64,000 nucleotides of DNA from Cyanophora paradoxa CCMP329 (Eukaryota > Plantae > Glaucophyta), in the NCBI GenBank assembly GCA_004431415.1, contig QPMI01000280.1, positions 1 to 64,000 of the forward strand. Reading direction: 5' to 3'. Shown here piece after piece: positions 16,673-55,800 of this stretch (its first letter is position 1; the number at the start of each line of letters is the position of its first letter). Under the pieces are notes generated by a model. It was not told where the DNA came from. It searched no databases and saw only the letters and a program-made list of their open reading frames with translations. The translations under genes were made by a program, and so were the position numbers.

Positions 16673-17037
16673 CGTACTTTGTCCTCTTCTGATATATAAC
16701 AAGAAATCTTTAAGTCCTTTTTGTTGTTGGTATATACTTGTCTTGAAAAGCCGTCATTTTTTTGCACCGTTTTGAAAGAAGATGCCGGAAAAATAAATCG
16801 AAGTGTCCCCGATTGTCTACTTGTCGGTCGCAAGTTTCCACGAATGAACCCCGTAGAACAGGTGATAAAAGCGCGATATACATGGATATCACTTCTTTCT
16901 ACAACGCCACCCATAAAAATGAGTAAACGTGAGCCTACGCGAATGGATTGTTTACGTAGCGCTACATTTGAACAAGAAATTTTTTAACGGCAAAATGATC
17001 ATTTACGCAAAAACGTCGGGCTACGCAAAGGTCGGTT

Positions 17038-31700: not shown

Positions 31701-32208
31701 ACAGCGGCCGAGGAGAGGGCCCTTGCCTGCAAGATCATTGCCGCCCTGTGGGAGAAGCGGGCCGCGAAGACTGGCAAGAAGGCGAGCTCGCCGCCGACTC
31801 TCCAGCAGCTGGCGAAGGAGGCGCACATCGCCAAGCTCGCGGCCGGCGGCGGCGACAAGCGTGCAATCGAGCGCATCCTCTCGAAGGAGCAGCTGCGGGC
31901 GGAAGACCCGTCAGCGAAAACGGCACCTCCAGTCGTGGCGGCGACACGGATGTCGTACCTGTACGACCGCGGTGTCCGGAAGCTGCCGGCTCGGGAGCAC
32001 GAGAAGATGGTGGAGGAGATTCGGGCCGCAGTAGCCCGTCTGCATTCGAAATCGAAGGTCAGCTGCCCTGGATTCGAGGCCACATGCAAACGAGTGGCAG
32101 CGCACTTGAAGAAGGACTTGTTCGGTGGCGACGTCATCAACCGCACCTGGTTCCATCGCATCGTCCGCGACGTGATTGGCAACTGCCGGATCTGCGTGGC
32201 GGCGCGCG
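25720..32208 (+). pseudogene. pol: Decayed GC-rich Ty3/Gypsy element (gag-like region, PR, RT, RH, start of IN), split by the 29093-31037 insertion and cut at 32208
   Basis: Protease LVDTRA...ILGAD; RT SPWAFPVVLAKKKDGTWRFCVDYRELN, VYLDD; RNase H FILQTDACKYGLGAVL, ELEALAVVWA, RTDHEPL, DADALSR; integrase zinc finger H...CRIC. In-frame TGA at 27767, 27854, 28964 and 31138. The left boundary is approximate. Confidence 0.92.
29093..31037 (+). mobile_element. Non-autonomous Helitron2/Helentron-like element (1945 bp)
   Basis: Removing it restores Gypsy ...CAG CTG CGA GCA|TTC TAC GGC... (QLRAFYGFGSYYRRFI) with no TSD. It has a 12-bp asymmetric inverted repeat (AGCCCTGCCAAT 29095-29106, ATTGGCAGGGCT 31003-31014), then hairpin CCACAC-GTGA-GTGTGG and terminal CTTG. 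About 870 bp are homologous to 33913-34790. Confidence 0.88.
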
Positions 32209-32465
32209 AGCTGAGCTATACGCCATTACTCCGCACGTTTAAACTTCCGAGATCCAGCGTATCCAATCGGATTTATTACGATATTCAGTGTATCCAATCG
32301 ATCTAATCGAGAAACTCAGTATTCTCAGTATTGCAATCGACGAGATTCCCGATATCCTTCAATCGATAAAATCTAAACCATTCTCAGTCTGAAAATAAAA
32401 ATAATCCGCTTCAATTCATGCAAAAAATGAAAGAGTTTAAAACTATTATCACATCGATCTACAAA

Positions 32466-32738
32466 ATGACCACCATTATACCAGATAACGTAAGAGAGAT
32501 ACTACAAGAGATTACAACAACTCCAAATGAAGAGCAAGCAAACGCAATTTTAGAGAGAACCGCTAAGAGTATTGGTTTAGATGTTAGCAAACTACCCAAT
32601 AAATTTAAAAAAGAAATCATGAAAGACTTCTTTTCTTCCATGGAAACTATCGACACATCCAAATGCTCAAAAATATTAGAAAAACGACATGATGCAAACC
32701 ATGCACGGGAGAAATTACGCAGAAAGCATGGTTTCTAA
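32466..32738 (+). CDS. Hypothetical viral protein (90 aa)
   Basis: AT-rich ORF MTTIIPDNVRE...AREKLRRKHGF, preceded by CAAAAAATGA at 32421. Confidence 0.55.
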   Translation: MTTIIPDNVREILQEITTTPNEEQANAILERTAKSIGLDVSKLPNKFKKEIMKDFFSSMETIDTSKCSKILEKRHDANHAREKLRRKHGF

Positions 32739-32812
32739 GTTTTAGCTTGATGCAAAAATTGATTGAATTTTAAGAATGCTTAAAAAGAAGTAGTAGAAAT
32801 CGAAATATCACA

Positions 32813-32947
32813 ATGGGTTGGGAAAAGCGCAAAAGGGACGTTAAAGAATGTGGATGTCACACAGTATGTGAAGTTCATGACTTTTTTAACGATGAAAGGG
32901 AATCGTATCGCGTTTATTGCGAAAAGCACAAACCGAAAACCAAGTAG
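32813..32947 (+). CDS. Possible 44-aa Cys/His-rich viral micro-protein (below the track cutoff)
   Basis: MGWEKRKRDVKECGCHTVCEVHDFFNDERESYRVYCEKHKPKTK*, preceded by AAAATTGA at 32755. Confidence 0.35.
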   Translation: MGWEKRKRDVKECGCHTVCEVHDFFNDERESYRVYCEKHKPKTK

Positions 32948-33511
32948 TCTTAAAGAGGGCATCGCGACGATTCCGAATCTTTTTTCAGAATCGAAAACGG
33001 AGCTGTTGGTGAAGAGTTACAGCAGTTTGTATGAATTTCGTCGAAATTTGTAGTCGGCTTGTCGATTAAACGTCAAGCCGTATCAGGCTTGTCGTTTTTA
33101 AGTCAAGTCTCAATCGCATTTTCCGGTATCCCCCGTTTCGCCTTATGAATGGAACTTTCGCTTTTTAGGTATCCCCCGTTTCGCCTCTGACATCTTCCCC
33201 CCATCGTCCTGAAATCATCCCCCCATTGTCCTGAAATCATCCCCCCATCGTCCTGAAATGTCCGAAATTCCCATAACATATATACCGCATATAATACACA
33301 ACCTCCGACATATATACGTCATAAATACCTAAAACCTCCGAATTCCCGGTTTGATCATACGGAATTTCCGGTGAAAAAAGTGTATATATATGTGCATATA
33401 TACATCGTCGTTTCGCGTGTCGGCATCTTCAAAACCTCGTAACTCTTCACCAGATCATCACCTATTCAATCTAAAACCGTCGCCGGAATGCTCATTTAAA
33501 GCGCTTTACAA

Positions 33512-33912
33512 CTATACCGTAATCGTAGTGGGTTCATTACTAATTCTTACTGATTCTCTCTTTTTTATCGCTCGTCTCTTAACAAACTTGCGAAACGCTT
33601 TCAAATCATCATCTGTTATTATTGCACGGTCTGTGTATACTTTGATGTCATACCCTTGTAATCCAGTTATGACGGTCTGATAGTTGTAACCCCAAAGTCT
33701 TCTTGTCCAATCCACCATTATATTCATCAAATGCACAATTAAACTCTTTTTCGTTCCCAAGAATATTGAAAAATACCACAAATTCCACGTTACGACGAAT
33801 GGTAGTAGAAATAGAGCATATACGTTGGACATTGAAAATAACCGTGATACCATAATGTCTTCCGCTCGTTACCAGTTTGGATAACACAGCCGAATTATGC
33901 ATATCCAAATTA
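33512..33912 (-). pseudogene. C-terminal remnant of an A32/FtsK-like genome packaging ATPase
   Basis: LSKLVTSGRHYGITVIFNVQ...IRRNVEFVVFF matches the GRH, Q and IRxN motifs of A32 ATPases. The Walker A/B half is missing at the Helitron junction, and there is a frameshift near 33690. Confidence 0.78.
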
Positions 33913-36900
33913 GATCAATTTTTAACGTCCTGGCTCCCCTAAGACGACCGCTCTCCCGTGGGCGTCGTGCGAAATCGAATTTCCCTCTGCATCAATTCCG
34001 GTACTTAACCTCCGACAAACACAGTCCAGGTCCGAAGGTGGGACCCGGTCCCGCCCGGTTCCGCGACGAAACTGCGCCAAGCACGCCCCAGAACGATACA
34101 GAATGCCGCGCGAGGGCGAGCGCATCGCCGCAAGCTCGATTTCGGGCGGCCTCGAGCTCGACGCTCCAGTGCGAAGAGTCGGCCGAAAATTTGATCCAGC
34201 CGGTCCCGCAACGTCCCGCGACGCGCGCAATCGATGCGTACGGACGCGCATAGACATAGCAGGGCCTGCGCACCCCCGAAATCCGCTTTTCGGAGCCGGA
34301 ATAGCGCACGAAGGCTCCGGCGGCAAAAATTCGATCCTGCACAGGCCCCGACATCTTTCCCCGCGCGCACGCCGCGGCGCATGCGCGGAACAATAGTATA
34401 AGTATTTGAGATGTAGACGAAGCATTCTGCACGCTTTGCAGGTGCGCTGGGCCGCGAGGACCCAGCCGACCCCAAAAATTCGATCCTGGGCGGACCTGTG
34501 CATCTTTCCGCGCGCCCTCGCGTGCTCACCCATGCCCATCGCTACCTAGTATTAATTTGAGATCTATACGAAGCCTTCCGCAATCTCTGTGGCGGGGACA
34601 GAGCACGAGAATCCAGCCGACCCTAAAAATCAGATCCTGGCCACGCCTGCACATCTTTCCGCGCGCCGTCGCCTCCGCGCCGCAGCCCTCCGCATTGATG
34701 CTATATGCATTCGAGATTCTGTTTAAGCGGTTCGCAAGCTCTGCGCATGCATATGCGCCTGGCTGCGAACCTCGCCCCTCCCGGGCCTCCGGATCCCCCC
34801 CAACAATTGCAATATATTAATATGAAATTAATCTCCTCTCAATTGCAATCTGCTCCACCAGTTGAAACCAAGCATTACCGGTCCAACTCCTCCCCTAATT
34901 ATAATAAGCTATCGGACCAGCCTGGCAGCATGGCCCGGCAGCCAGCCAGCTGTTCAGCCAGGCCGCTGGCAGTGCGCATGCGCCAAGCCTACCGTGCACG
35001 TGCCTACTCGCCAAGGAGCGCGTCGATCCGCTCCATGCGGCCAGGGCGCCCGGCCTCCCTCCGAACAACATTATATAATTATTCTCCGAGCGATGTAAAT
35101 TAATGTGACTCCAGTAGACTAGAGGCTGTGGCCGGAAATTCACCAAAAACAAAACACTAGGCCTAGGCTGGGGAGTGCTTACTATTAAATATTCCTCCGA
35201 GGCTCGCCGGCGAGTCGCCGGTAGGCAGTACTTACTACCGCGGTAATTTGCTGCTGAGAATTCGAAGTCGCGCCATACAGTACCGTCTGAAATTACTTAA
35301 AAAGCTTCCCCGTACAATTGCAAGCCTCAAAGTTTTAAACCCGCGTTAATTTCGTACTGCGGTATTTCGGTCAGAGGACGCCCATTTTTGAAACCGCGTT
35401 AATTAACGCGCAGTAATTTAGTGCCCGACGGTATTTCAGACTAGCCGACTCGGGCACGACCAGCTATATATAGTGGACCGCCGGACCTGCCGCTGGCTGC
35501 CATGCAATGGCATGCATATCGCCAGCTTCCCAGCTTCCATGCATATCCCTACTGATTCGCCAGCTGGCCAGCTTCCAGCCAGACAGGTCAACGGTCAGAC
35601 AGGTTAAAAAAAGATCTTGAGAACGCGAAAAGGCCATTAACAGAAGATCTTGTCAAATCTTGAATAAAAAAAAGATCTACCGAAACCAAAACGGCGCCAT
35701 TGCCCAATCCACCGTGCATGTACATCGATACATATAGACGAATGGATGCACAGACTAACACAGTCATACACTACTAGTAGTGTAGAGCTTATGCTAGTGT
35801 TGATCGACACATAATCTACCTTCCAATTCACAAAAGATTTTGCGGATCTCACTGATTCAGATCTAGAGTCTTAGCTATAGCGAATCTCGAGATTCTCGAC
35901 GTTCGCGACTCGGCGATGACCGCAAACGCTATAGCTATATATCTCGTACTGACTGCCACTACCAGGGCCCGGCGTTTCTCGCTGTTGCGGCACTACGTAG
36001 CGAGAAATTAAGGACGCGTAGCAGATATTGAAAAACCGCTAGAGGCAAGATCGGAAGCTCGGCGCTTGCGTGCAGCTCAAGCTTGCGTGTAGCTTACGCG
36101 GCTGAGGAAAACCGCGTAGCCCCGGAGCTCCCAGCGCCGCGATTGGCTGCCAGGCTGCTCGCGTAACGCGTAGCTTGCGGCTGTAGCTTAGGCGCGGAAC
36201 CTTAATCTTCAAATTAGGGTTCCGCGCGTAAGCAAAATTGCTTACACTCCGTTACGAAATTACCTTTTCCTTGATATCGCTCTACGTAGCTTAATTCGTA
36301 AGCGCTACGTAAGGCCTTACGCGCAAGGCCGCCATACATTTTGGCGACAGCGAGAAACGGCCCTGCCAGGCCGAGCCTCGGAGGCTGGACCGTCGCACGC
36401 CGCACTGCGGCATTTCGAAAGCGCGAATTCGAAATGCCGCAGTGCCAGCAAGCCTAAGCCGCCAGCTCCAGTTCCCGGCGGCCAGACACTCGCACGCAGT
36501 GCCAGCCGACTCCCGCCTGCAGATCTGGCCAGCAACAACGCTAGCTAGCTACGACTCTTGCACGCCACTGGGCCAGCCTGGCAGTGCTCGCGATCGTGCC
36601 ACGGTGCCGCAGTGCTAGCCTATAGTACCGTATACTAGCCTAGTAGCAACATCGACGCCAGAGCGCGCAAGCAGTAATTGCCAGGGAGCTTAAGCAGACA
36701 GTGCGTGGTCAGGCTGGCCATGGCTAGCGCCCGATCGGGGGCCTGGACAGCTACTAGACTATAGCTAGCTACGAATCTTGCACGTTACCCTAGTACTACG
36801 GTAGTGCTCGTGCTATAGCTAGTCTAGCATACGTACCTGCATGGCCGCCTCATCCCGCAAGCAGTAAGTGGCCAGATTAGCCTATACTAGCAAGATCGGC

Positions 36901-39900
36901 GCCGGATCGCGCGAGCAGTAACTGCCAGGAAGCTTAAGCAGACAGTGCCATGTCAGGCTGGCTAGCACCCGATCATACGTACCTGCATGGCCGCCTGATC
37001 GCGCAAACAGTAAGTGTGACGAGCTTAACCAGACAATGCCAGATTAGGCTGGCTAGCTCGCCGGCTTCACACCAGAATTTACTATCGCCGCGCTGCGCAG
37101 ACCGCGGTCAACGTCAATGTACACGCACGACTGCGTTGACAATTCACCCATACGTACACGTACATATACGTACGTGTTGACAGCGACTCCCTTGAACGTA
37201 TATATATACGTTCAAGGGAGTTGATGTATATTTTTTTTTCAGGATAGCCCAATTCTTGGGCGGTGGTTTTATTCTCAGACCACTGACTTCAACGTATGCA
37301 CTACTGGTTCGGAATGGGCCGAACTCTGGGTCAGCTCATGACCTGTGGCCGGTACACAGGGATAGGCGCTTCGACGCTAACTCTAAGCGTTCAGTGTGGC
37401 CTTGGGGGAGAGCTTGGGCGGGGTGTCCTTCTTGGGCTCGCGTTGGCGGTACGTGGATCAGCGACTACGAGCACCCGAATGAGCTACTGCACGACGTAAT
37501 TGACGCAATCGCAAAGAAGCGGAGTAAATTTCCGCAGTTTCTCGAAGCGCTGAAGGACGCTATCATCGACATGCTGTACAGTGTGTTAATTTCAATTCGA
37601 TTATGTCCATTTCGCCATTAATGCTCTCCGCAGCTCTGTACCAGCCGATGGTGCCATGCGATTGCTGCGGCGTCCGTGACTACATCGACGATCTCTACCC
37701 CGAGACGCACCCGAACATATTGAAGCCCCACGGGATCGACGACGCCGCGATGCGGCGCATTCAGGAGACGGAGGATTACATGCACAAGCTGGAAACCGGA
37801 ACATCGAAACCGCGGAAACCGTTGCTGTGCGCAATGTGCCACAGACATCGCGCAGAGCAAGGTGTCGATATCTGTGGGCTTTCGAAAGAGGTCCGAGTCA
37901 GTCTCTACCACTCTCCAGTATGTTCACTGACTATCCCCGCACAGAACGGCATCCACCCGACACCACCGTCGGAAGATCTCACCCGGGAGGCAGCAGGCCT
38001 CACGTTTCCAGAGGCTGTCGAATGCAGTCCTGCCGTGTCGTTCGTGAACATCGCAACCACGCGCATCGGTCGGCAGCAGGCCGCGCACCCGAAGGTCACC
38101 ATGGTTTACTCGCAGCCCGCCGAGCTCGTTGAATCGATGAAGCCCCTCGCGCCGGGAGACGCTATGATGTACGTGAACATGGAGAAGCCGACGGCGCCCG
38201 GACACGACCGCAAGTTCACGAACTTCTGGGAGTTCAGCACTTCCAAGGTGAGAAGCGTCATGAAGCTGCTCGTCGCGGCCGGCAACAAGTGGTACCAGAA
38301 ATGCGGATTCGACAAGCTCGACGACGCCTACTGGGAGAAGGCCACTGCCGACGCAGAGAACTGGAAAGCGGACCTCGCTGACGAAGAGCAGCACGACCGC
38401 ACCCCTGCACCGCCGCGAGTCGCCCGCAAACGTGGACGCCAGCCTCACGTTCCCGGAACCGGAGAATCGGTGGACCTGACAGCAGTACCGCACGCGGCGA
38501 CGGGAACCGAGTCAGCTACCAGCGACGAGGAGACCGAAGTTTCGGAAGAACCCGAAGTGCACGACGACGTTGGATACGAAATCGCCAGCTCCGGAGCCCG
38601 TCGCCTGTTGACCGACGTAGGAGATCCCGTGTTGAAGCAGTTCATGGAGTCGTCGTTGAAGCTCGCAATGACAGCACGTCCTCCTCTGCCAACGGCAAAG
38701 CCGGAGGTCGGGCCAACACGTGACGCGTCAACAGCAAGGTCGACACGTGACACCGGATCCGAGGACGAAGCCGACGACGCGCCCAGATTCGCCCCTCCCG
38801 ATCTCGTGGACCTCGACAAGCTCGCGCAGATCAACAACAAGGACGTCGACGAGTTCGTGCAGCTTGCACGTGCTACGGCGCACGACGTCGATACAGAGGC
38901 CGCAGTGTACAGCGACCCCACCGGATTCGACATGCCTCAACAGCCGGCAACGCCCGCAGTCGTGCAGTCCGAGTATCACCACAGGCTCGTCGACGTTGCC
39001 ACAGCGTTCGGCGAAGATGTTGCCGAACGTACTCGCACGTTGCCGATCCTCGATCGCGTCCACTTAAATTTCAGCAAGGGTGCAGAGTACTGCACAGCCC
39101 CATTTCCATTTGCGTTTCCAGACGGTGAGCACTGTGCACCGGCACCGTCGTCGATTTGTGATTTCGTGCAGACGGACATTGACCCTTTCTGAACGCAGGC
39201 CGGCACGGACGGATAGGCGACCCTGCAGACCCTCTCGATCAACGCAAAGTACCGCTGTCGATCAGCAAGTACAACAAGTGGTTCCTGCTGTCCGACAAGG
39301 CGCGCGCCCTTGTCGCCGACATCGGATTCTTCTTCGTCCAGGCGACGGATTATCTCAACCTCAAGGCTTACCAGAAGAGCAACTGTGCAATTCAGAGTCT
39401 CGAGCTCGACAAGTTGGAGGCGGCCGGTCACCCGGTGACGGCCGTGCACGTCATGGACCACCTCACCACCGCCGTCGATGACCCCGACGTTACCGTAGAC
39501 TTTGTTAAGCGCCACCTCGTCCGTGCGACGCTGAATGCGGTGAGTCCGCAGCACACCCTTGACAACAATTTGCACATTATTTCCTGACGCGCCCATCTCC
39601 AGGTGCCGGGATCGCACCAGCATCTCGAGACCGGTCACGGCCAGCTCATTGCTGCCGCACAGACGTACGGCCCGCCGCAGATATGGTACACTATGAGCTT
39701 CAACGATCACGGTGACGCGAGTCTGTACAGAGCCATCGACCGCGAGAGGTTCCACAACCAGGCCGCAATCGATGCACTAAGCGCAAACGAGAAGGACGCG
39801 ATCCTGAACTCGGAGTCCGGAATCGTTGTCCGTCACTATCAGCGGCGCTGGAACGCGTTGATCGAGCTGATGTACTCCGAAGGCGCGAGGGCGATGTTCG

Positions 39901-42900
39901 GCGGTTACAAGATGACAGGTCATTTCATCCGTCACGGCGAGCAGCAGCGGCGGACCTTGCATGGGCACCTCATCGGCTGGTGCGAAGGCATGCCTATGTA
40001 CGACACGTGCGAGAAGCAGCACATGAAAGACTACCTCGAATTCTTTGACAGCATCGTCAAGGCGGAGATCCCTCGACCTCCAAAGCCCGACGACCCAGCC
40101 GTCCAGGACAACCTTCACGTGCCGGATGCCCTTCGACATGATTGGGCGACCGCGTTTCTCCGGAAGGTCATCCTCACGTTCAACATTCACCGACACAGCG
40201 GCACGTGCCGCATGACGAAGGCCAAGCAGGCACAGCACTATTCATCTTCCACGCACAAGCGTCACGAAGAGCTCTTCGCCGCTGCAGCGCAGTTCAAGCC
40301 GACTCAGGAGTACACGAACCCGTTGCTGGAAGGATGCCAGCCCATCCACGGCGCTTCCGACAAGGACGCCCAGGAACTTGCCGACCTTGTCAAGAAGCTG
40401 AACAACGCCTGGTGGAGGGCGAGGAAGTGGTGCCGCTTCGGACTGCCAGGCCGCGCGTCCCGATACGCGAGACTCATGTGCGTGCTCAAGTTCTGCGATG
40501 ACGTGCCCCCGGTCGACGCCAGGTCGACGCCAGAGCTCAAGAACGCGCAACGCGGCGACAGGCTACTGGTGCCGATGCGACGCACAGTAGAAAACTTGTT
40601 TGTGGCGCTGTTCAACGAGTGGCTGTCCCGCATTGCGCACTCCAACCTCTTCTTCGATCTCGTCGCGGACTTCGAAGCGATGGGAGCGTACATGTTCAAG
40701 TACGCACTGAAGGTACGCCCGTGCTCACGCGTCCCTGGACAGACGTAGCACGTACTGAAGCTCATTGTGCGCCCGCAGGTCGAACCGCAAGCATTGGAGA
40801 GCATATACGCTGCGCTCGCAAAGGCGGGCGAGAAGGGAGGCACCCTACGGAGCGCGATGGCGAAAGCAATTCGGAAGTCGCTCTCGCACCGCGAACTCGG
40901 CCGGCCGGAGGCAGCTTTCCATATGCTCAACTACCCCATCTGGCACTCGTCGTTTCACGCCCGCACCGTTCCGTGCATCCCTCCGGACAAGCGGACAAGA
41001 CGTTCGTACCAGCGCGGCTTCATGCGACCGATCCGCAACCGCAATCCTGGCGAGACGAAAATATTCGTCAACAACGACATCGACTGGTACATGGAGAGGC
41101 CTGACGACCAGTTCTGGAACGTGATGCTGCTGTACAAGTTTCTGCAATGGTTTGCCGTCGTCGCCAAGAAAGACGGGATTCGAGGCGACAAGATCGACAT
41201 GTCTCCCTTGGCAACAGCCACGTTGGAGACAGGACGAACCGAGCCGCATCACACCGACTCGCAACACGGTGGCGACGAGCCGGAGGATGACGAGGATGAC
41301 GACGACGACCATCCTGACTCAGACGCCCCGGAGTACCCTCAGCGCCAGATCGAACGCGAGCACCGCGAGGAGAAGGCACGGCAGGCCAAGACGTGGGTAT
41401 TGGACCCGCTCTGGCAGCGATGGCTGCGTGAAGACGCTCTGTCGGACGAAGAGTGGCGACAACTACAGAAGACGCCACCGCTCGTGATCCCGGACGGAGA
41501 AAGGTGCATGCCGTGCTTCAACACCGCGAGCGGCAAGAAACAGCTACGGATGCGACGGCAACCCATGCCAGTTGTGATGCCGTTCAACGTCCACTCCGGC
41601 CAAGTTGCCAAGTACGCGCCGCTCCTCTTCTACCACCCGTTCCGCAACGAGTGGACGGACCTGCTCGACATGCCGGCTCGTGCGGAAGTCACTGACGCCA
41701 TCCTCGCGGCGGCAATGACAAAAGCACGGAAGGCAACAATCACGCGCCACGCCTCGGCTGCAAGCGACAACATCCGCGTGCGCATGGAAGAGATCATCAG
41801 CCGGATCACCGACATTCCGAACATGACGGCGACGGGCGCAATCGTGACGGAACACGCGGAGCCCAGCACCATCAGAAACGCAGCGAGCGGCTTGGGAGCG
41901 GGACTGCCAGCGCCATCGTTTCAGCCTGCATCCGTTGAAACCGAACAGGCGGTCCTACGAGCGCATGGTGTCATTCCACCCTCCGCTGAAGCGGGGACCG
42001 GCGGACCGTCCGTTCAGGCGGCCCCACCGTCATCCCGAGCTCCACTCGTGTCGCCCGACAACCTGAAGCCCGAGCAACGCGAAATCTACGACAAGATGGT
42101 GAAATACTTCGAGCTCAGACGCAAAGCGGAAGCGCTGAAGGCAAGAGCTATGCGATACAGGCGCGATGCGGAGGGCGGTCAAGACGTGCCGGAGATTCTG
42201 AAGTGCTGGTACATGCCTGCAGGACCGCGCTTCTTCGTCACAGGAGGAGCGGGGTGCGGAAAGACCGTCCTACTGCGCTGCATCGAACACGCTGCAAACC
42301 AGTACAACGTTGGTGATGCGGGACTGGAGGCCCTCCCTCACGGCCGCTGCACCGTTGCAGCACCGTTCGGTTCCGCAGGCTTCAACGCAGGTGGGGGGAC
42401 CATGCACACGCGCTTCCACCTCCAAACGCACCTCTCCGGCAAGCGCGACCAGATCAAGCACAGCAGCTTCACAATCGACAAGCTGCGACTCGAGCTGCAG
42501 CAAACGTACGTCCTGCAGATCGACGAAATCATGTCCTGCTGGACGAACATCTTCTACTCGTTCAAGACGGCCCTGGAGGACGCCATGTGCGGACGAGAAG
42601 CCGTCGGCGACCCGGAGACTGGCTTGGCGCCGCCACCTCTTCCGCAGTACCAGGTCGGACCCGACGGAAGGACGCCGGTGATGCAACGCTACCCATTCGG
42701 AGGCTTGGCAATCATCACGTACGGGGACGCGGCCCAGGTGCCGCCGGTCATGTCGCAGTCGTTGTGGGAGACATTGTTGCCGGCACGGAAGGACATTACG
42801 ATGCAGAATGACGTCAAGTGGCACACGCCGAACCTGCACACCTTCCCCAGCTACTTCACGGCTCACGTCCTGCCCTCGTCGATGCGGCACCTGGCGGATC

Positions 42901-45019: not shown

Positions 45020-45096
45020 TAAGGGTCGTTCCAGTAAGCGCCATGTCTTATGTTTAAAATACGAAAAGAAATTTTTAATTTACATTATTAAACAGA

Positions 45097-45999
45097 ATGA
45101 CGCGTTACTATCTTAATATTGATTCCCGGGATCGGGATGATGGAACCCCCACAAACTATTCATACAAACTTCCCCATGCAATCCAAAATGTTAAAGCATG
45201 TCGTGTTACCAATTTCGAAATGTTCAATAACATTTACAATCTCAGCGAAAATGGAGCGCTCGTAACCTCTACACTCGATGGACAAGGAGCAACCAAAACT
45301 AAATCAAACACAATTTCAAAAGGGGCATACACAGCAGAGAGTTTGGTGAATTATCTAAATGCTCTACTGTTATCCCAGACATACAGTGCATCGGGAACTA
45401 CATATACCCGTCATTTCAATGTGTCTTATGACTCTACCACAATGAAACTAAGGATTATTGGCGAAGCAACATTTACTATACGTTTCGGTAGTCGGATTTT
45501 AGCCAATTTCTTAGGTTTCCCGGATCCATCAATTAATGGCTCGGGTTTAGGTTATCCATCCACACCTCTTGGTTCACCCGTTACTGTTGGTGGTTTTACT
45601 TATAATCATTACCTCGACAGTGTCATACCACTCGATCTTCTGTTTAATTCTTACATCCTTCTACATGTCGATCCACTCAAAGGCAACTACGTAAGCAAGA
45701 ATACCAGCGATGATAAAACCTTAGCTAAAATTGAGATTGACCAGACCGTAGGTAGTCTCCTAAAATATGATTCTACCAATAACTCTATGATCATTCATGA
45801 GCAAAACGGATTAGTGGAAGTTGAGACGCTTAAAGTGCGTTTGACGTATTGGAATGGTAACGAAACGGACATTACCACGGATTGGTCAATGACCTTAGAA
45901 CTGATCACTGAAGATGAAAAGGATCTAACGAAAGCAGCATTGAAAAACGTCGTTAGAGATTTGGAAAACGTCTATTTACCATTTGGTCGTAATATGTAA
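45097..45999 (+). CDS. Minor capsid (penton-like single jelly-roll) protein
   Basis: N-terminal YLNIDSRDRD...NYSYKLP..IQNV and C-terminal YILLHVD...LAKI...LKVRLTYWNG...DWSMTLEL resemble PLV/NCLDV pentons. The 300-aa ORF is intact. Confidence 0.75.
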   Translation: MTRYYLNIDSRDRDDGTPTNYSYKLPHAIQNVKACRVTNFEMFNNIYNLSENGALVTSTLDGQGATKTKSNTISKGAYTAESLVNYLNALLLSQTYSASGTTYTRHFNVSYDSTTMKLRIIGEATFTIRFGSRILANFLGFPDPSINGSGLGYPSTPLGSPVTVGGFTYNHYLDSVIPLDLLFNSYILLHVDPLKGNYVSKNTSDDKTLAKIEIDQTVGSLLKYDSTNNSMIIHEQNGLVEVETLKVRLTYWNGNETDITTDWSMTLELITEDEKDLTKAALKNVVRDLENVYLPFGRNM

Positions 46000-46031
46000 T
46001 ATTGCTGAATAATTTTGTGGGGTTATTTCAA

Positions 46032-46778
46032 ATGGCTCGTAAGACACAACCCAAGAATTTCTTAGCAAAACCCGTCGAACAAGCGGAACCGGAACGGAAG
46101 CATTACAAGAAATCGAAAGGAACCGCAGCGTTTGGAACCGCTGATATCGAAAAGAATATTAATAATATGATTAATTCCCATGCTGTGGCGCCAGTAGACG
46201 ACATTAACGATGGTAACGCCCTTGTTGAGCAAGTGCCGCTAAATCGTATGCCCGGTGCAAAGCGTGGGATCAAAAAGGGGCAGTTCAACAGTTCCACCGT
46301 TGATGCCGTTAACAAGAAGTCTACTCTTCTTAAACTTCTCGATGGCGGTGAACGTCTGTATTCCACGTATTCGGAAAAAGACCACCGTAACCGTTACTTT
46401 ATCAGAGCAACCACTGGTGGACTGAAAACGATCACATACAAACACGCTAAAAGTCTCATTGAGGGAATCGCTGATGAGACACAAAAAGAGAAGAAGATAA
46501 CAGAGCAACCGATAACCAAAGAGAAGGTAGACAAGAAACCAAATGTTACGTTTGATGTCCTACCGGATCCGATCAAAGAGGAGAAACACACACCGACGGA
46601 ATTAATCGCTAAGACGATCGATTACCAAGAATCCAATAAAACGGATTTACCAGTGCTTAACAAATCAATCCTCCGGGTTGCTACATCGCAATCCGACCCG
46701 CTTAACTCCATTCCAAATGCAGCGCCGATGCTTTCCGGATTCGCTAAATTGGGTCTCCGCCCAGGCTATCGCCGTTAA
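46032..46778 (+). CDS. Conserved hypothetical viral protein (248 aa, Lys-rich)
   Basis: Intact ORF from ATG 46032 (MARKTQPK), with a close homolog at 17038-17494. Confidence 0.8.
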   Translation: MARKTQPKNFLAKPVEQAEPERKHYKKSKGTAAFGTADIEKNINNMINSHAVAPVDDINDGNALVEQVPLNRMPGAKRGIKKGQFNSSTVDAVNKKSTLLKLLDGGERLYSTYSEKDHRNRYFIRATTGGLKTITYKHAKSLIEGIADETQKEKKITEQPITKEKVDKKPNVTFDVLPDPIKEEKHTPTELIAKTIDYQESNKTDLPVLNKSILRVATSQSDPLNSIPNAAPMLSGFAKLGLRPGYRR

Positions 46779-47153
46779 GCGACGGCTCACGCATCATTCT
46801 CACGTTAAAATTTTCTTTTCAAAGAATAGCGCAATACCCTCCATTCCGAAAGTTTGCGCTCACGTTTACTTATTTTTATAAGTGGCGTTGTAGGAAAGTT
46901 GTGAAACATTCTATGTTTTTCACTTTTTAATCACCTTTTCTACGGGGTTCATTCGTAGAATCGAGGAAGCGAAGACGGCACGCAAGCGAGCCTTAGCGAT
47001 GCTCTTTCGGCTTATTTTTCCGGCATCTTCTTATTATCGATGCGCAGCGCTCCAATGCATAGGGGCAAAAAATGACAGCTTTTTAAAGCGGTCTTATATC
47101 AAAGAAGAAAACCACTTAAAGATTTCTTGCTATATAGTAACAGTGATATACCA

Positions 47154-47370
47154 ATGACGACCAGCGCAGCCCAGAAGCGTGCGAATGCGAATTACCGGGC
47201 GACCGGTAAAGGTAAAATTGCCCTCCAAAAGAATAAGGACAAAATGCTATCGGTCGTTAAAGATCGTTCAAGCAAGCCACCGGGCATATTCCAATAATGC
47301 GATTTGTTTCGTGAAGTTCTTGATTGGCGTTCCCTACAATAATGTGGGTCGCCCATCGAAATATATCTAA
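47154..47370 (+). pseudogene. Frameshifted homolog of the 16418-16672 small basic protein
   Basis: MTTSAAQKRANANYRATGKG is in one frame and NAICFVKFLIGVPYNNVGRPSKYI is in another. Confidence 0.75.
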
Positions 47371-47377
47371 GTCTTTT

Positions 47378-47401
47378 TTCTCAGCGCGCTTGCTCTGAGA
47401 A
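47378..47401 (+). terminator. Conserved hairpin just after the small-gene stop codon (also 16385-16408, minus)
   Basis: TTCTCAG-N10-CTGAGAA lies 7-9 nt after the stop in both virus copies, and the loop bases differ between them. Confidence 0.5.
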
Positions 47402-47567
47402 GACAAAACCGCGGTAAACGCGCTAAACACCATAAATACACCTTTGAGTTATTTTTAGGTCTCCATGCGTCTCGCTAAGCAAGCCTTGCGCCAGCGCTGA
47501 TGGAGCCGCTACTTTTGTTATTTTTACATAACCCTCAAAATTCGCGATAATTGATTTTGTGGGTCGC

Positions 47568-47625
47568 CAAAAAATGACGTCAAGGTGAAAAAATGATTTA
47601 AGGATAATTTTCTTTGAATATATTA
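47568..47625 (+). promoter_or_regulatory. Candidate viral promoter AAAAAATGA ... TTAA(A/G)GA ... TATA upstream of the replicase
   Basis: CAAAAAATGACGTCA is conserved upstream of polB in both copies (copy 1 at ~16243-16257, minus). The same AAAAA(A/T)TGA motif precedes four other small viral ORFs. Confidence 0.55.
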
Positions 47626-50001
47626 AGAACGCCTAAGGATGCCTCGCGCTGTAAGTTATCGGAATGCTAAGATTCGTAAAGAAATTAGAGCGGTAAATGA
47701 TTATGGATACGCGAGTGGGTTTCTGACTGAGGAACAGTATGATGCTTTCAATTACTTTGCCTTTCAGAAAAGACCAAGGGGGAATGGATTGAATGATATC
47801 TTATATTCGATTAACGATATCATCGCACGCGGTGAAGCTCGACAGAATGCGGAAGACGAAATACGTCGTCTCGGGGCTATTGATGTCCCACAGGAACTTG
47901 TGAATCAGCGACCGGAGAGAAACACGCAGTCTCACATGACCCGGTTCAATCGCATGATGAAGATTATCAGCGACAGTATCGAAAATTCAAACAGTGAAAC
48001 GTTTTCGGTGATGTTTCTTCTCTATCGGGAAGTTACCGATGAAAACGAAAGAATACCCGAACGTCGTCGAATACCCGAAAGAGGGCGGTAAACGCTACTA
48101 TACGCCAATGAAAGGGAGAAAGGATGAATCACTACATGGGATTACTTGCAATAAAGCCACACTCATTAGATCTCTTGCACTCTCAAAAGACATTTTCCGA
48201 AAGAAGCCATGTATCCGTGAGTATGACATTAACGAATTCATCCTTATTAATTTGGAATCCGGACGTAATCAGGATCTAACATACCTTCGACATATATATA
48301 GTGATCAATACCCTTCCGTCTTAACAATCGAAAAGATCATACCAGACGGTCAAGCGAACATTATCCCGAAGGTGAATCAAATTCTACGCGAATACCAAGC
48401 CCCCATGATTTCATTCAAATATCTCGGTTATGAAATCCCGACAAATGCTAAATCATTTGCAGAACTATTCGATAGAGACGGTATATATCAGTATCGTATT
48501 AAGGCGTGCGTTTTCGATGCGCTTGTTCTTGTTTTCGCTTCCGCTTTTGAGAAGGCAAAAAAACAAGGTCGTTATGGTTCTGTCCGTTGGGATCATGCCT
48601 ATTTGTTTAAAATGGTGCATGGAAGAGATCCCGTGGATGGTGATGATTGGGGGTTATCATTAAACCAAATGATCGATAAGATATTGAAGCCTTACCGCAT
48701 TTCGCTTGTCGTTGTTGACGAAATGGACAAGATCGACCACGATTTATCTTATATTCCGATGGATTCTGAGGGAAAGCGAATAAGAAACAAGCGACTGTGT
48801 CCTTCCACTATGTATGTGAAGATTCAAAATGGACACATGTATTTGCTGAATAAGAAGGTGGAAAGTCTCATACAGTCTTTCAATGGAACTAAACCGGTTG
48901 AAAAGAAACGCCCACTTTCTTGCAGATACAAGATTAACAAGAAGTTCAATCATAGCTATTTCGCACGCAATCCTGATGATATCGCGGTAATCCTCCATTC
49001 GAAGGCAGTCGAAGATAAGACACTTATTCGTATCATGTATGGCGGCGAAGGTGGGCTTAATGCATTATACGCGTATTTCGTGGCGGTTCATAACTACATC
49101 CCCGATGCGAAGGTTTCCCTTCTAAGATCCGTTCAAGACATCAAATTTAAATACGGCGAAAAGGATGTATTGATAGTAGGGGTTTGCTCTGATGTGGATG
49201 TAGAAACGGCTTATAACATTCAGTTTGATAACGAAGAGCAACGCGACACGTTTTCGAAGTATAACCACAAATTCCGGTTATCTTTGATCAATTCCCAGCA
49301 TAAGAGCTGTTACAATGAGAACACGCGAAATGCTTTCATCATTGGTTCCCAAAGTGCATTAATCGGACGCTTTGAGGATTCAGCAGAGATCGCGAAAGAT
49401 TTAGCGGATGGTGTCCTAAAAGTAATCGAACATGACGCCATTAAATCTTACCCTTCTCATCTTAACAGTCTCGAAGAATTCCCAGTATTTAGCGAATTCG
49501 ACGATTTCAAGCAGGTAACCGTGAATTCATCGGACGAAGTCGAACCTTACAGTTTCTACTATCTGACACTGAAAAAGGGAACCTACAAGATCAAGAAAGA
49601 CACGAAAGGCAAAGAATACATTTCATATCAGTTTCCCAAGGTGAAACGTATTCTCGTAGATTCCCCATGTAATCTTCTACCCGGCTTTGTTCTAAAAGAG
49701 CATTTCGAAGATCTGAAAGACATCGTGGACATTAAAAGCGTTCTCAGACCATAACGACCTGTCAAGAACAACGTTAAACACATGATTAAACAGATCTTAG
49801 AAAGCAATTCTTGTAAGAAGCAGATTCTTGTAAGTGTTATTCTTGTAAGTGTTATTGGAATGCTCGGTAAACAGAAAAACCAAAAGTTCAGAACTAAGAC
49901 ATTCTTTAACAAATCCGACGCTTATGATTACGCTAAGAAGCATGGCGGGGAGGTGAAGTTACTTTATTTGGGTAAGCAGGAACAGACCGAGGAGTTCTAC
50001 G

Positions 50002-53000
50002 GTTTTTTTGGAAAGTCTGCTCCATTCGTACACACATGACAGCAGTCCCCCGCTCCGCGCCTACCGGATACTGGGAAAGCCAAGCTACACTGAGGAAAAG
50101 GGCGAGCTCGGTTCTATAGCTTGTTGTCGTAGTCGAGCTGATGCTGAAGCTGTAGCCGTCAGGTCGCCCCCAACACATAATATGCGCCGGTCCTCAAGTA
50201 GGAGGCGTAGGCATGCTGAGCTACACGGTCCTAGATGCCCTCTTGCTGGTTCTAAAACATGGCCGCGGGTCGCTCGTGAAGGGGGGAGTTGAGAGAGGAG
50301 GTGGGGAGGGAGAGATGGGAGGGTAGGTTCAGGTTGTTGCGCTGGGTCTTGGATCGCGCCGCCCAAGTCCACGGGTGCGGCGGGGTGTTGGGAGCAGGGC
50401 GTCGCTGGCCGAACGTGAGGAGCCGAAGCTCCTAAACCTCGGCCTTACGGGCCCGCTGGGCCCTGCCGACGCCGCGTTCGAGTCTCCTCCAGCTGGGCCT
50501 CCTCCCGCTCCCGTCGCCGCCGTGGGGTCCTGAGCGGGCGCGTCCTTACCTATGCGCGCACCCTCGTCCTAGCCCGCCCCCCCCCCACTCCGAACCCCCC
50601 CCCCCCCTCTTCCTATCTATATTGCAGGAGGACGAAGGCAAAAAACTTCCAAAAAGGCCTTCGCGTTCACATTAGGGGCTGAGCCCGGGGAGGAGAACAT
50701 CAGTTCCAGGCTAGGGGCACAACCCCATGAAATCTACTGTTGTAGACGTGAAAGTTCATTCGACTGAAAGAAAAGATTGTCCAAAGAAAGGAAGGATAGC
50801 TAGAGAAAGGGTCTCCTGCACAGGAGAGGAAAGGAGCTAGCTGCTCGATAGCTCCGGGCGGCCGTGAGCCGGAGCCTCCCGCCTTCGAGGCTACGCTGCC
50901 TGGTTGAGGTAGCGTTTGGCCGCCTTGTTGGCGGCGATCTCCGCGGCCTTCTGGGCGAGCCGGCGCTTGCTCTCGCGGCCGGTCTGCTGGCGCGGGGCTG
51001 GCGGGGCCGGCATCATGCCGGCGGCAGCGGCGGCGGCGGCGGCTTCGCGCTCAGCCGCACGGCGCTCGTTGCGACGCATCTGCGGGCAGCGGGGTCGGTC
51101 ATTCCGAAGGAGACGGGCGGGCGCGCTGGGCTCGCCTCGGACGGAGACTGGTGCCGGTGGACCGGGCGTTGCATGTCGAGGAGGCTGAAGCGGCGGACCG
51201 CGCTGCTCGTGGTGCTGACGGAGGCGGCGGACACGACGGAGGCGCGGTCGTCGTCGTCGCTGTCGGTGTCAGCGTCGGCGTTGACGGCGGCGCGCGTGCG
51301 CGCAAGGTCCGTCCGGAAGGTGTCAGTGGCGGAGCGCGCGGCGGCCGCCCGAGCCGCTTCGGCGGCCGCTTTCGCCACCGCGGAGCCCACGGGCGCGCCG
51401 CAGACACGCACTGCCTTGGCGGCCGCGTAGTCGGCGGTCTTTTTGATGAAGTCGTCTTGCGCCTTGGGGCACTTCCCGGTTCGCCCAGGGGTGGCCGTAC
51501 GGGTCGTCCATGATGCAGCACGCCTGTAACGGAGTGAGTGTGCGCGAGTTCGCGACGCATAGACGCGGCGGGGCGTCGCGCGTACCGAGGTACAGATGAT
51601 GCCGAGAGGCTCGCCGGCGGGCGCCGGAATGAGACGGAAGCGGATGTCGAGCGGGTTGAGGCCGCCGACACGCCAGCGAGGCCGGGAGTTGCCCAGCGGG
51701 TGCGCAGCAAAGAAAGAAGAGTTGACGTAGCGCTCGAAGTCCGGGTTGCGGAGGACGAGGCGGAGGGCGAAGGGCGCCTGCGAGGTCGATTCGACGTAGA
51801 AGATCTCCCAGTGGTGGATGTTCTCCACGCCACAGTGGCGGAGAAAGTGCACGACCTGGGGGCGCGCCCGTCAGGCGTCGGCGTGGGTGCACGCGTACGC
51901 GGGCACGTGGGGCGGTGCGCGCACCAGCGAGCCGTCCGGGCGGCGGCCCTTGGGGGCGGTCATTAGCAGCACGATGGCGTCCTTGGGGTACTCGCTGAGC
52001 GGGAACCGTTGTTCCCCGGTCGCCGTTACGTCACGGATGCAGACCTGATGCTCGCTTTCAAGGATCGCGTAGTCCTTCGACATTGCCAGGAGCACGTCCG
52101 CGTACTGCCCGAACAGATTCTCGTCAGCTTAAGAGACCGGGTGCGAGGTGTGGGCGCCATCAGGTGCGCACCTTGCGAGGCATGGCAGCGAAGAGGACGG
52201 GGCGGGCGTTGAGCCGCTCCTGGCGGTCTTGCGCGAAAGTCGAGGCCTCGTATCCGATGCCGAGGATCGCGTTCTGGACCTCCACCGGGTCCGGACGCGG
52301 GAGCTTCGCGGAGGTGAAGGCGTTGACGATGAACGACGTCACCTTTTCCTTGCACTCCTCATGGCGGATGTGCGTGTGCTGGTCCGTTTTCTTCTCGCCG
52401 CGGCCGTCTGCAAGAGAGGGGCGACGGCAGGGTAAGGCACGTGCGCGCAGGGCTCCGCAGCGCGGCGGGGCGTACAGAGAGGCGGCATGCCGTGGAACGC
52501 GAGTGTCGGGTTCTCGCGGTCCTCGATGAGAATAGTGGACTCGAAGTGAATCCTGAGCAAGGGTGGAGTGAGAGGCGGTGAGCGCGCGCACGGGTGCGAG
52601 CACGTGCACCGGTCATTGTTGAGGTCCCGAATGTCGAGCTCTCGCAGCTCCTCTATCGTCTTGTAAACGGCGGCCTTGTCGTCGAGCTGCCGCACGCAGA
52701 AGGCGAAGGTGTTGGACACCGGGTAGTTCTCCGTGACCACGACCTTGCTGGCAAGGCCGTGTAGCTTGAGCTGTTGCTCGAGGTGAAGCATGATCTCCCG
52801 CTTGGACGGGTCGCGGTTCTGGAAGTTGCAGCCGGGAATGAAAGGCTTGCACGCTTCCTTGTAGGCGAACAGTGCCGCATTGTAGGACTGGAGTCGGGAC
52901 TCGGCTGTCTTGCCGTAGGGAACAACTTCGGTGTAGCCGGCCTGTGCCGACGAGTTCGCCGGGTTTATCGGAGCTGGTAGTCCCGACGGCGGGGCCGGTC

Positions 53001-53273
53001 CATCGGTCATCATTTCGTCCGAGCTCGAGGAGCGCGAGTTCGTCGATGAGGAAGCAGGGCGAGGTGTCTGTCCGGGCACGCCTGGCTTGACGCCCAGCGA
53101 GCCGATGCCGGGAATCTGGGGAAAGTGTCGGCCGACCGTCGCAGCGGGCACCGCCGCGGTCCGGCACGCACCAGAGATGCAGTGGACATCGGGAGAGGCT
53201 CTGACGAGCAGCAGGGACGCCTATGCGGCGCGACGACCTTGCGGTCGTGAACTTTCCGGGTACCGGAAAGTCC
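50002..53273 (-). mobile_element. 3.27-kb GC-rich insertion with an 18-19-bp TSD, oligo-A 3' end and an intron-containing gene; no RT or transposase seen
   Basis: Direct repeat CAGACCGAGGAGTTCTACG at 49983-50001 and 53274-53292. T7 at 50003-50009. The PolB frame (QEQTEEFY|DEYEDP) resumes after the insert. Confidence 0.88.
50891..53189 (-). CDS. Spliced gene of unknown function, possibly ORF1/gag-like; predicted introns 53116-53171, 52553-52609, 52408-52475, 52105-52171, 51856-51924, 51524-51585
   Basis: ATG 53189 (MSTASL|IPGIG). GT-AG introns of 56-69 bp, most with CTGAC/CTCAC-like branch sites, connect the track ORFs in frame. A Cys/His cluster CTS|ACC...GH..C lies near 51470-51590. The 3' end is uncertain. 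Confidence 0.6.
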
Positions 53274-55069
53274 CAGACCGAGGAGTTCTACGACGAATAC
53301 GAAGACCCACAGGTAATGTGTGATGAGTTGGACATTAAGGTTCCGCACGTGTGGTATGTTATCAAAGTTGAGGATAAGTTACTTATCGATGGGTTCCTTC
53401 CAATTCAGTGTATGATTTATTCCATGCAGCGCATGCGTCTTTACGAAAAGTGCAAGGAATTAAAGGGGATTGTTGGAGCTATTAAGGTTGATGCGGTCTA
53501 CGAACTAATCGATGAAGGCGAAAAAGTCGATTACATCACGCTCGACCGAACCAAATATGAGAATATTGGAAAGTTCACCAGCAAGCCCATTAATTCCAAG
53601 GATTACCACAAAAAGGTGTATCAGAACAAAGGGAAGAACTCAAACGGTAACATCCGATTTTGCAAGCCTGAGAGAATGAAGGATTTCGTCCAAACGCACA
53701 CATGGGAATGCAAAACTTACACTGTTGCGGATGAATTTAGCACCCAGTCCATCTGTGATTTGATGCATAACGGTAAGAATCGGATCGTGAAGGCTCTTTA
53801 TCCGGGAGGCGGAAAATCGACCGCTTGTTTCGCAGTGACCAAAGCATTTCTCAAAAACCCCGCGTTCATTGTTCCTTTCAATAAGCGTGTTAAGGAATTG
53901 AAGACTGAAAATGGGTTTACGAATGTGTTCACCATTCATGATGCTTTCAATCTCAGGGTAGATAACAACGATATGGACGATGTCGTAGGTATTAATGTGC
54001 GGAAGTTAGAGGCTCACGATTGTTTCGTAATTGATGAAGGGTATCAGTGGACTATTCCGCAACTTGCCGCGCTTAAACATGTTATGACGGTTGCGTCCCC
54101 GGAGAAGACATATATAATCAATGGTGACCCTACACAGAATCCACCTATTCAGTTCCTAAGCGTGGATCGAACAGCTCTTTTCGTGTAAGTTGGAACTTCT
54201 AATAGACAAGCGCCATGTTTTGCCGGAGGATCGGGAAATGATCAAGGAGATGAAGAAAGACCTTATCGAAGGTGATATGGAGGTTTCCGCGATGATTCAG
54301 AAATATAAGTTTCAAGTTGTTCACCCCGACGAATTGCAACCGGGCGATAAGATTATTACTTACACGAACCGGAAAGCCGCACAGATGAATGCTTTCATAC
54401 ACCGTAAAAAAATGGTAAAGATGCTCCGACTCATTTCAAAGGTCTCGAAATCGTCGCAAGGCATCGAATCACCAAAGGGAAGACGGTAGACGGTGAGCGC
54501 GTTATGATCCATAATGGATTCTCGTATATTATCGAAAAGATCGACGAAACCACACTTACGATTTCGGATTACGCGGATCGAAACATAGTAATCACGCTTC
54601 CCTATGATTGCATTCAGAGCTTCTCGTTTCCGCATGCTAATACCTGTCACGTTGCGCAAGGCGACACCATTAAAAATTCTCGTGTTGCGATCTGTGAAAC
54701 GAGTTCTCCTTACGTTAATAAATATTGGTTTTGGGTAGCCATTACACGAACGCCGTATTTAAAAGACACGGTTATTTGCGTGGATGAAAGCGAAATATTC
54801 AATATGGGTGCGTTCAAAACCCGAATGCATCGATCTATTCAGGGATACAAGCAACAAGACCAGAAGGCAGAGCGACCTTATGATGAATCCCAGTATGTTA
54901 CATACGAATGGATCAAGCAAAGGATGGGTAAACAATTTGGGTTCTGTTCAAGATGCTACCAAATCATGGATCTCGAAGAAGTTTCGGTAGATCGTGAAAA
55001 TAACGCAGTCGCTCATGTGATAGGGAATATTTCCCTCTCTCATATTAGTTGTAACTGTGCCGCGCAGTA

Positions 55070-55800
55070 ATGGATACCGTCTTATCTTACAAGAAATACC
55101 GGCAGAAGTTGATAAATGAAGGTGTGAGTTTTGATGAAGCGAAATTAAAACAGCAGTTTGCAAATTCGGAATTACAACAAATTTTTAAAAAACCCCAGAA
55201 ACCTTAAACGTTTTTAAGTATCGTAGCTAATCCCCGTTCATTCCAAGTAGATATTATGTTTTTTAGAGGATTCCAAACAGCAAACAGAGGAATGGGAGAG
55301 GCGCTTACGTTTATTGAAATTCTTAGTCGAAAAGCGTTTGTTTATCCTTTTAAAGACTCTTCCGAAATTCGCGATATATTAGATAGATTCAAACGGGATG
55401 CGGGAAGAGTTGTAGGATTGGCGGGAGATAATGAGTTTAGCAATGCAGTTTATCGGGAATGGTGCAGTGCGAATGGCGTAGAACTTTACACAGATGTAGC
55501 AAAAGACGACCATGTAACAGTTGGTAATAAGTTAGGTATCATAGATAGATTCACAAGGACTTTTAAGCAATATCTGAGAAAGGCGATGGTTGCAAAAAGG
55601 GACAAGTAAATGGCTCGATTTAGTAGGCGATGTTTTAAACACTTATAATACATCTCCTCATTCTTCTTTGAAGAACGACACACCAAACAACGTATACAGT
55701 AATGACCAAAAACAATTATACATTTACCTACGTGACAAAGTGCATAATGAAAGATTGACACAGAAAGAAGTGGGAGACGTCAAACCGGGCGATACAGTTA
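55070..55800 (+). pseudogene. rve integrase (copy 2), with an internal stop, a frameshift and 3' truncation by satellite
   Basis: MDTVLSYKKYRQKL...FQVDIMF, AGDNEF, GIIDRFTRTFK, YNTSPHSSL. It ends at PGDTVR, where the 124-bp satellite begins. Confidence 0.9.

Follow-up and report, generated by a model that had tools for sequence, protein, structure and literature searches.

Probable remnants of two proviruses from one Polinton-like virus lineage with a Tlr1-like replicase in repeat-rich DNA of Cyanophora paradoxa

We analysed 64,000 nucleotides from Cyanophora paradoxa CCMP329 (contig QPMI01000280.1, positions 1 to 64,000; hereafter the window), in which an initial annotation had described a family of endogenous, integrating Polinton-like viruses. 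It is highly probable that the window holds two decayed proviruses of one Polinton-like virus (PLV) lineage, with a polymerase-helicase-HNH fusion, an rve integrase, a penton and an A32 ATPase, and that they entered by what are likely to have been separate integrations. Copy 1 lies on the minus strand (17494->11010) and copy 2 on the plus strand (46032->55800). The penton, ATPase, replicase and rve genes bear out the annotated family, with one refinement: the element is a PLV with a Tlr1-like fusion and not a canonical Polinton.

The two copies share the gene order conserved open reading frame (ORF), small basic ORF, replicase, rve integrase (Table 1), as had been annotated and as was confirmed by tblastn and blastn. 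Three long blastn blocks align the copies at 66-70% DNA identity, and the encoded proteins are 64-67% (integrase), 37-56% (replicase), 76% (conserved ORF) and 41-56% (small ORF) identical. Three aligned gene pairs of 152, 148 and 212 codons gave identities at codon positions 1/2/3 of 0.80/0.84/0.46, 0.79/0.87/0.41 and 0.60/0.67/0.39, that is, 39-46% at position 3 and 67-87% at position 2. The concentration of differences at third positions implies that purifying selection was acting while the copies diverged, either before they came to lie here or independently of that. Two separate integrations, as originally proposed, are therefore likely on this comparison.

Table 1. Positions of the features described in the text, numbered from the first nucleotide of the window.
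Feature	Position	Strand	Remarks
124-bp satellite	1-7662 and 55799-64000
206-bp satellite	7663-10496 and 17495-22492
AT-rich virus-like blocks	10497-17494, 32209-33911, 45020-55800		last with GC-rich insert
Integrase-side end, copy 1	10497-10650		terminal-repeat-like; joined to 206-bp satellite
rve integrase, copy 1	11010-12014	minus	333 open codons; 5' end out of frame in window
Replicase, copy 1	12082-16182	minus	uninterrupted, 1,367 aa
Small basic ORF, copy 1	16421-16669	minus	83 aa
Conserved ORF, copy 1	17041-17494	minus	remnant 17487-17044
Ty3/gypsy RNase H ORF	31193-32037		adjoins viral end 32209
Second element end	32209-32340		homologous to 10497; inserted in Ty3/gypsy pol ORF
Two short ORFs	32418-33053	plus	about 106 and 89 codons; surrounding DNA AT-rich, virus-like
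A32-like packaging ATPase	33515-33911	minus	C-terminal remnant; frameshifted, cut at 33911
Helitron-type interruption	33912-45019		high-copy non-autonomous unit at left edge
Helitron Rep/PIF1 ORFs	37528-44534		Pfam Helitron_like_N E 1.7e-9, PIF1 E 3.4e-7
Hairpin, 7 bp	44995-45011		near Helitron/viral junction
Penton	45097-45999	plus	intact, 300 aa
Conserved ORF, copy 2	46032-46778	plus	intact, 248 aa; best-conserved gene between copies
Small basic ORF, copy 2	47157-47367	plus	frameshifted
Replicase, copy 2	47639-55070	plus	frameshifts, stops, 3.3-kb insertion
Insertion in copy-2 replicase	49982-53274	minus	3.3 kb, GC-rich (65%); short poly(A) end
rve integrase, copy 2	55071-55800	plus	one stop, one frameshift; cut by 124-bp satellite

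Each copy is damaged in its own way. The conserved ORF, annotated in both, is indeed present twice, but copy 1 keeps its last 148 codons only (76% identical to 46332-46775); there the 206-bp satellite truncates it, and the junction bears a 21-bp tandem duplication. Family scans found no match for this ORF (46032) or for the small basic ORF. The window was compared with contigs of four public runs (X1, X14, X4 and X18), and those of X1 and X18 continue past 17478 with different sequence. Frameshifts and stops affect the small ORF, the replicase and the integrase of copy 2; since X4 and X18 contigs reproduce 44858-48200 without any difference, the breaks within that interval are real. The virus-like DNA that remains amounts to 7.0 kb in copy 1 and about 9.2 kb in copy 2, and insertions of this sort are reported to span 15-30 kb (PMC10120064).

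In the replicase of copy 1, an N-terminal part of about 500 aa leads to PolB-like motifs A, B and C (at aa 592, 724 and 841), an SF1B helicase (aa 941-1260) and an HNH-like Cys/His C-terminus (aa 1324-1363), and public contigs span most of the gene piecewise with few differences. The protein would thus be a polymerase-helicase-HNH fusion, its polymerase part being assigned from the motifs and from published architecture. The replicase profile matched RecD2, Pif1 and TraI helicases (E 1e-16 to 1e-10), and in the replicase alignment (A3) the motif-A and motif-C aspartates are kept in all six rows covering each. Homologues are few: one of 6,080 candidates, P0001 (E 1.5e-33, 25% identity), and 7 of 576 metagenomic stretches, in three of which (L001, L004 and L006) the replicase is directly followed by rve. 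The homologue L007 matched Pfam HNH at E 0.02, below the cut-off. No PolB family match was obtained, and the motifs are fused to the helicase and HNH parts, unlike a stand-alone PolB with exonuclease. A word-indexed search for longer forms found none at 1,776-5,000 aa, a length window too high to inform.

These features agree with those of the Tlr1-like helicases, described as proteins of 1,000-1,400 aa with pDNAP motifs, no exonuclease and an SF1B helicase, to which a C-terminal HNH is added in PLVs (PMC5499653). The copy-1 protein has the length, pDNAP motifs 1-3 ahead of the SF1B helicase (a polymerase by motif) and a C-terminal nuclease pattern. The polymerase of Tlr1-like helicases has been proposed, without a test, to be inactive (PMC5499653). 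Fusions of polB and SF1 are described as typical PLV replication genes (bioRxiv 10.64898/2026.06.19.733378), and in the fusion of an Oxyrrhis PLV the domain order is reversed (PMC12721341).

The integrases in the window match Pfam rve weakly, that of copy 1 at E 0.004, below the cut-off. Their homologues on L001, L004 and L006 (E 1e-9 to 1e-14) pass it, and the family profile matched foamy virus and Ty3 integrases (E 2e-9). The catalytic aspartate is invariant at two positions, while the third position is Asp in both copies and Glu in 3/3 relatives; as far as the alignment can tell, this Asp is a trait of the lineage and not a product of decay. Nothing on point about DDD-type Polinton integrases emerged from a literature search at the level of result listings. 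At the 5' end of the copy-1 gene all four runs compared differ from the window, and the frame break may be an assembly error, such as are known in other protist endogenous viral elements (PMC10120064). PLVs bearing rve and 6-bp duplications are reported to be common in cryptophytes (PMC12220804). The related integrases at L001:1116-2090 and L006:235-1239 end in a chromodomain, which those of the window lack. Between the integrase stop of copy 1 and the element end, at 10895-11010, a palindrome-like unit of 12 nt recurs as short repeats in direct and inverted orientation, a possible replication or transcription signal.

The ORF at 45097-45999 is, on profile and fold evidence, a penton (minor capsid protein), in agreement with the annotation of a penton-like gene in copy 2. 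Neither a word-indexed search nor Pfam gave a match for the ORF, and tblastn found none in phages. Atlas placed it in viral clusters including DUF5901 (score 0.97-0.98), with recognition below threshold. An HMMER search returned 45 relatives at E 1e-3 or better, none better than E 1e-10 among 1.8 billion representatives. For the alignment, 43 of the 45 were taken (P0018 and P0032 were left out as long or partial), and 27 of the 44 aligned members matched DUF5901. The resulting profile matched PBCV-1 P1v1 (E 3e-25), P1 (E 8e-18) and the EhV-201 penton (E 1e-12). The structural model (pLDDT 84, pTM 0.77) predicts a single jelly roll that carries an insertion domain and is followed by a C-terminal helix; a single-sequence fold (pLDDT 33.5) was useless. 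Foldseek ranked the mavirus penton first (E 1.6e-8) and also returned P1v1 (TM 0.58) and the Sputnik and adenovirus pentons. Insertion domains and a C-terminal helix are also described for P1v1, a variant form of penton (PMC9617893).

A second virion gene is represented by the ATPase remnant. Positions 33651-33911 matched Pfam Pox_A32 at E 7.9e-4 (profile positions 113-161), below the cut-off; the remnant is also the top window segment for the L007 ATPase query, and contigs of other copies continue past the cut at 33911. A PDB sequence search with the remnant gave no match. The A32-ATPase remnant of the initial annotation is thereby confirmed, on the minus strand, and its membership in copy 2 would follow from the linkage discussed below. 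No maturation protease was recognised among the ORFs scanned, again as annotated; the middle of the element is deleted, and PLVs and Tlr1 are described as normally lacking a protease (PMC5499653). Scans of viral contigs with the penton, the integrase, the ATPase, the replicase alignment and the replicase motif made no finds.

On a 19-kb metagenomic contig (L007:860-11272), a homologous polymerase-helicase-HNH gene occurs together with an A32 ATPase, which passes the Pfam cut-off, and a 465-aa ORF of capsid size. No integrase was found in the part of L007 examined. The 465-aa ORF is, by resemblance, a candidate major capsid protein (MCP). Compared with 1,671 six-frame segments of the window, it gave a best E of 3.4, a weak test, since the MCPs of one PLV group fail to find those of another.

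Two element ends can be recognised. The same 9-mer opens the sequence at 10497 and at 32209, with no further occurrence on either strand of the window, and alignments anchored at the two ends (60 and 150 nt) beat 500 of 500 shuffles. The two sites would be the family's two terminal repeats, kept on different copies. From the second end, the AT-rich block 32209-33911 runs through two short ORFs, without a convincing family match, to the ATPase remnant; its trinucleotide profile correlates with the viral blocks at r 0.79-0.83 and with the transposons at no more than 0.42. The ATPase does not resume past the gap at 33912-45019, so viral DNA has been lost there. We consider the block likely to be the left arm of copy 2. 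Two expectations of the initial annotation fail at this gap: the interruption is not a clean, removable insertion, as the ATPase does not resume at 45020, and a complete virus cannot be reconstructed by merging the copies, from both of which the ATPase N-terminus, any MCP and probably several kb are missing. Nor is the 32209 end set in satellite: it lies within a gypsy pol ORF. Two side observations concern these regions: an X4 contig has a different flank at exactly 10497, by eye the 124-bp satellite where the window has the 206-bp satellite, which is another insertion or a rearrangement; and the spacer that separates the small ORFs from the ATPase end holds, at 33187-33259, a 22-bp tandem repeat and other short duplications.

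Public runs suggest many further copies of the penton and ATPase. Of 24 public runs listed, 20, from 14 studies under one species label, hold 92-95% of copy-1 words. Contig depths in X1/X14 were 82-105/137 for seemingly single-copy contigs, 226/304 for the copy-1 replicase, 150/206 for the copy-2 replicase start, 958-989/1,295-1,502 for the penton and 46032 ORF bins and 1,034-2,682/1,480-2,904 for ATPase sites; summed contig depth is no copy number, and these values are no more than a hint that the virion genes have some ten or more close copies and each replicase has few. No run is on record as RNA, and X4 and X18 were taken as such from their spliced contigs; they also lack the Helitron ORFs, and the satellite is depleted in them by orders of magnitude. 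Their contigs cover copy 1, and one contig of 5.4-5.5 kb covers 44.7/44.9-48.2 kb and beyond. Within the copy-1 replicase, X4/X18 show a skip of 64 nt with GT..AG ends (short side of 27 letters) that is not seen in X1/X14, and contigs of 862 and 1,159 nt derive from a diverged ATPase paralogue. Both elements are probably transcribed, as far as such contigs can tell. The segment 32209-33400 is almost uncovered in X4/X18, which proves nothing. A 135-nt skip in the copy-1 integrase was considered as a splice joint and dropped, as it lacks GT..AG ends.

The closest known counterparts appear to be PLV-Bnat and PLV-SAF5, which likewise have a penton, an A32 ATPase and a replicase of 1,000-1,400 aa that joins pDNAP motifs to an SF1B helicase and a C-terminal HNH (PMC5499653). 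They also have terminal repeats, to which the two related ends here would correspond, and no protease, just as none was recognised here among the ORFs scanned. Most PLVs with Tlr1-like helicases are described there as having a tyrosine recombinase or no integrase in place of rve; further differences from those PLVs are that no MCP is visible here and that the relatives found are only about 25-40% identical in sequence. Tlr1 of Tetrahymena thermophila shares the rve integrase, polymerase-helicase, penton and ATPase, the integrated state and, probably, the lack of a protease and the multicopy state; its helicase ends in GIY-YIG, not HNH, it has an MCP (PMC5499653), and the present host uses the standard code. 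PolB-SF1 PLVs, group 2 Maverick-Polintons and pMVRE groups 2-3 combine polB-SF1 with rve and are endogenous in many eukaryotes (10.64898/2026.06.19.733378; PMC13215967), but those groups are defined through phylogenies of MCP and ATPase that cannot be built from the remnants here. Canonical Polintons/Mavericks share the rve integrase, A32 ATPase, penton and, probably, terminal repeats; the window shows a helicase-HNH fusion instead of a stand-alone pPolB with exonuclease, and no cysteine protease was seen. The EMALEs of Cafeteria burkhardae are similarly low-GC viruses in high-GC DNA, many of them partial, of several types and colonised by retrotransposons (PMC8547959), but they are mavirus-type virophages with a protease, and no such genes were seen here. 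Transpovirons, of about 7 kb, have no virion genes, whereas a penton and an ATPase are present here. What is added is a very divergent, apparently multicopy lineage of a kind of element already well described. The organism has been much sequenced, and none of the five family proteins looked up was found in a collection of 15 billion sequences; the element lists and HMMs of PMC10120064, PMC13215967 and 10.64898/2026.06.19.733378 may bear on its novelty.

We propose that the parent virus had a linear double-stranded DNA genome with terminal inverted repeats. The A32 ATPase would package this genome into a double-jelly-roll capsid with the penton at the vertices, which presupposes an MCP in the parent. 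The SF1B-helicase/PolB-like protein would copy the genome from its ends, either unaided or together with a polymerase of the host or of a giant virus, and the rve integrase would insert it into host DNA, here in two separate events. Later damage is seen in the satellite junctions at 17494 and 55800, the Helitron-filled deletion, the retroposed insertion and the frameshifts, and the copies may have persisted because repeat-rich DNA tolerates insertions.

Several results weigh against this proposal. No MCP was found in the window, where the middle of the element is deleted, as the initial annotation had noted for the MCP; the penton-family profile found only 45079-45996. The 465-aa ORF of L007 has no Pfam or PDB match. 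The replicase profile gave no polymerase match in PDB, and the closest sequence matches of the penton are giant-virus pentons. Each copy has lost at least one of its ends, which leaves no target-site duplication to read, and the similarity between the ends is modest (a local alignment beat 497 of 500 shuffles). Finally, none of the 15 contig joints listed, of 35 over 28900-48200, links 33911 to 45020, and depth is near single-copy over the 32209 end and about tenfold over the ATPase.

The last two points bear most directly on the linkage of the ATPase block. Tentatively, 32209-33911 could be what is left of a third insertion that a deletion between Helitron copies moved close to the penton block, a course of events that would leave the PLV identity intact. 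The blocks are separated by 11 kb of foreign DNA and a deletion that no listed joint bridges, and the penton and ATPase seem to be multicopy, which makes chance neighbours plausible in a repeat graveyard. We regard this as possible, though clearly the lesser prospect: the orientation fits a left end facing a plus-strand copy with its integrase rightmost, the blocks are complementary with no gene repeated, and the composition of 32209-33911 correlates at 0.83 with copy 2a.

The missing MCP could also mean that we see a capsid-defective derivative of the transposon-like kind (transpoviron-like or non-autonomous), which lost this gene before it spread and travels within the genome by its integrase or in the capsid of a helper. 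Complete elements with this replicase and without structural genes are known (PMC13215967), and the greater depth over penton and ATPase than over either replicase hints at internally deleted copies. We consider it improbable, given that an intact penton and an A32 ATPase would be of little use without an MCP, that foreign DNA occupies the missing middle and that on L007 the replicase is accompanied by an ATPase and an ORF of capsid size. Equally doubtful in our view is a bolder form of the PLV proposal, namely a satellite-preferring lineage with a DDD triad and a catalytic polymerase, whose copies are unsilenced and transcribed end to end and whose MCP-bearing members lie elsewhere. Two of three junctions are in satellite, which makes up 37% of the window (both satellites combined), so a preference is not significant, and a literature search at the level of result listings gave nothing on point about satellite-targeting PLVs.

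A much more remote explanation is that the penton and ATPase are endogenous giant-virus fragments that merely adjoin an rve/helicase element. The penton does belong to DUF5901 with the PBCV-1 and EhV pentons nearest by profile, and a 305-kb giant-virus contig carries its N-terminal motif. The penton is, however, contiguous with the ORF-replicase-integrase block in one AT-rich stretch, its top fold match is the mavirus penton and no other giant-virus gene was recognised; of ten relatives looked up, four lie on contigs of PLV-like size (three near 14 kb, one of 13 kb), though contig size is also limited by assembly. A single insertion duplicated locally with the satellite and then decaying neutrally, for which the shared gene order within one 45-kb satellite-bounded interval might speak, is ruled out by the divergence under selection seen at third codon positions, and sits badly with the 1,367 codons still open in the copy-1 replicase and with surrounding satellite units that are 87-96% alike.

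The probable proviruses lie among other repeats. Besides the three AT-rich blocks, which have a trinucleotide profile in common, the satellite-bounded interior holds two Ty3/gypsy remnants and a Helitron Rep/PIF1 region. The GC-rich neighbours first described as intron-rich are in fact transposons (Ty3/gypsy, Helitron and the retroposed insert) and not host genes, of which family scans of ORFs recognised none in the window. The ratio of observed to expected CpG is 0.3 in the satellites (depleted), 1.3-1.5 in the viral blocks (rich) and 0.6 in gypsy A. The insertion in the copy-2 replicase is flanked by a target-site duplication of about 19 bp, and no reverse transcriptase was recognised in it; it seemingly keeps introns, which would make it an odd non-autonomous retroposed element.

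Over the gypsy ORF at 31193-32037, multi-exon contigs of X4/X18 run antisense (minus) with introns of 48-144 nt, and on that strand each of the six distinct skips is bordered by GT..AG or GC..AG; these RNA-like contigs possibly represent a transcript read outwards from the element end at 32209. Introns of this length, together with GC-rich transposons, would fit a protist, an alga or a fungus. A core of about 26 nt is common to the 124-bp and 206-bp satellites. A non-coding repeat with contig depth in the tens of thousands has two copies in the window (29308-30150 and 33912-34770) and is probably a non-autonomous Helitron. A gypsy pol gene carries a 1,945-bp insertion with short inverted ends (29092-31036), across which contigs of X1 and X14 join, so that an empty form exists.

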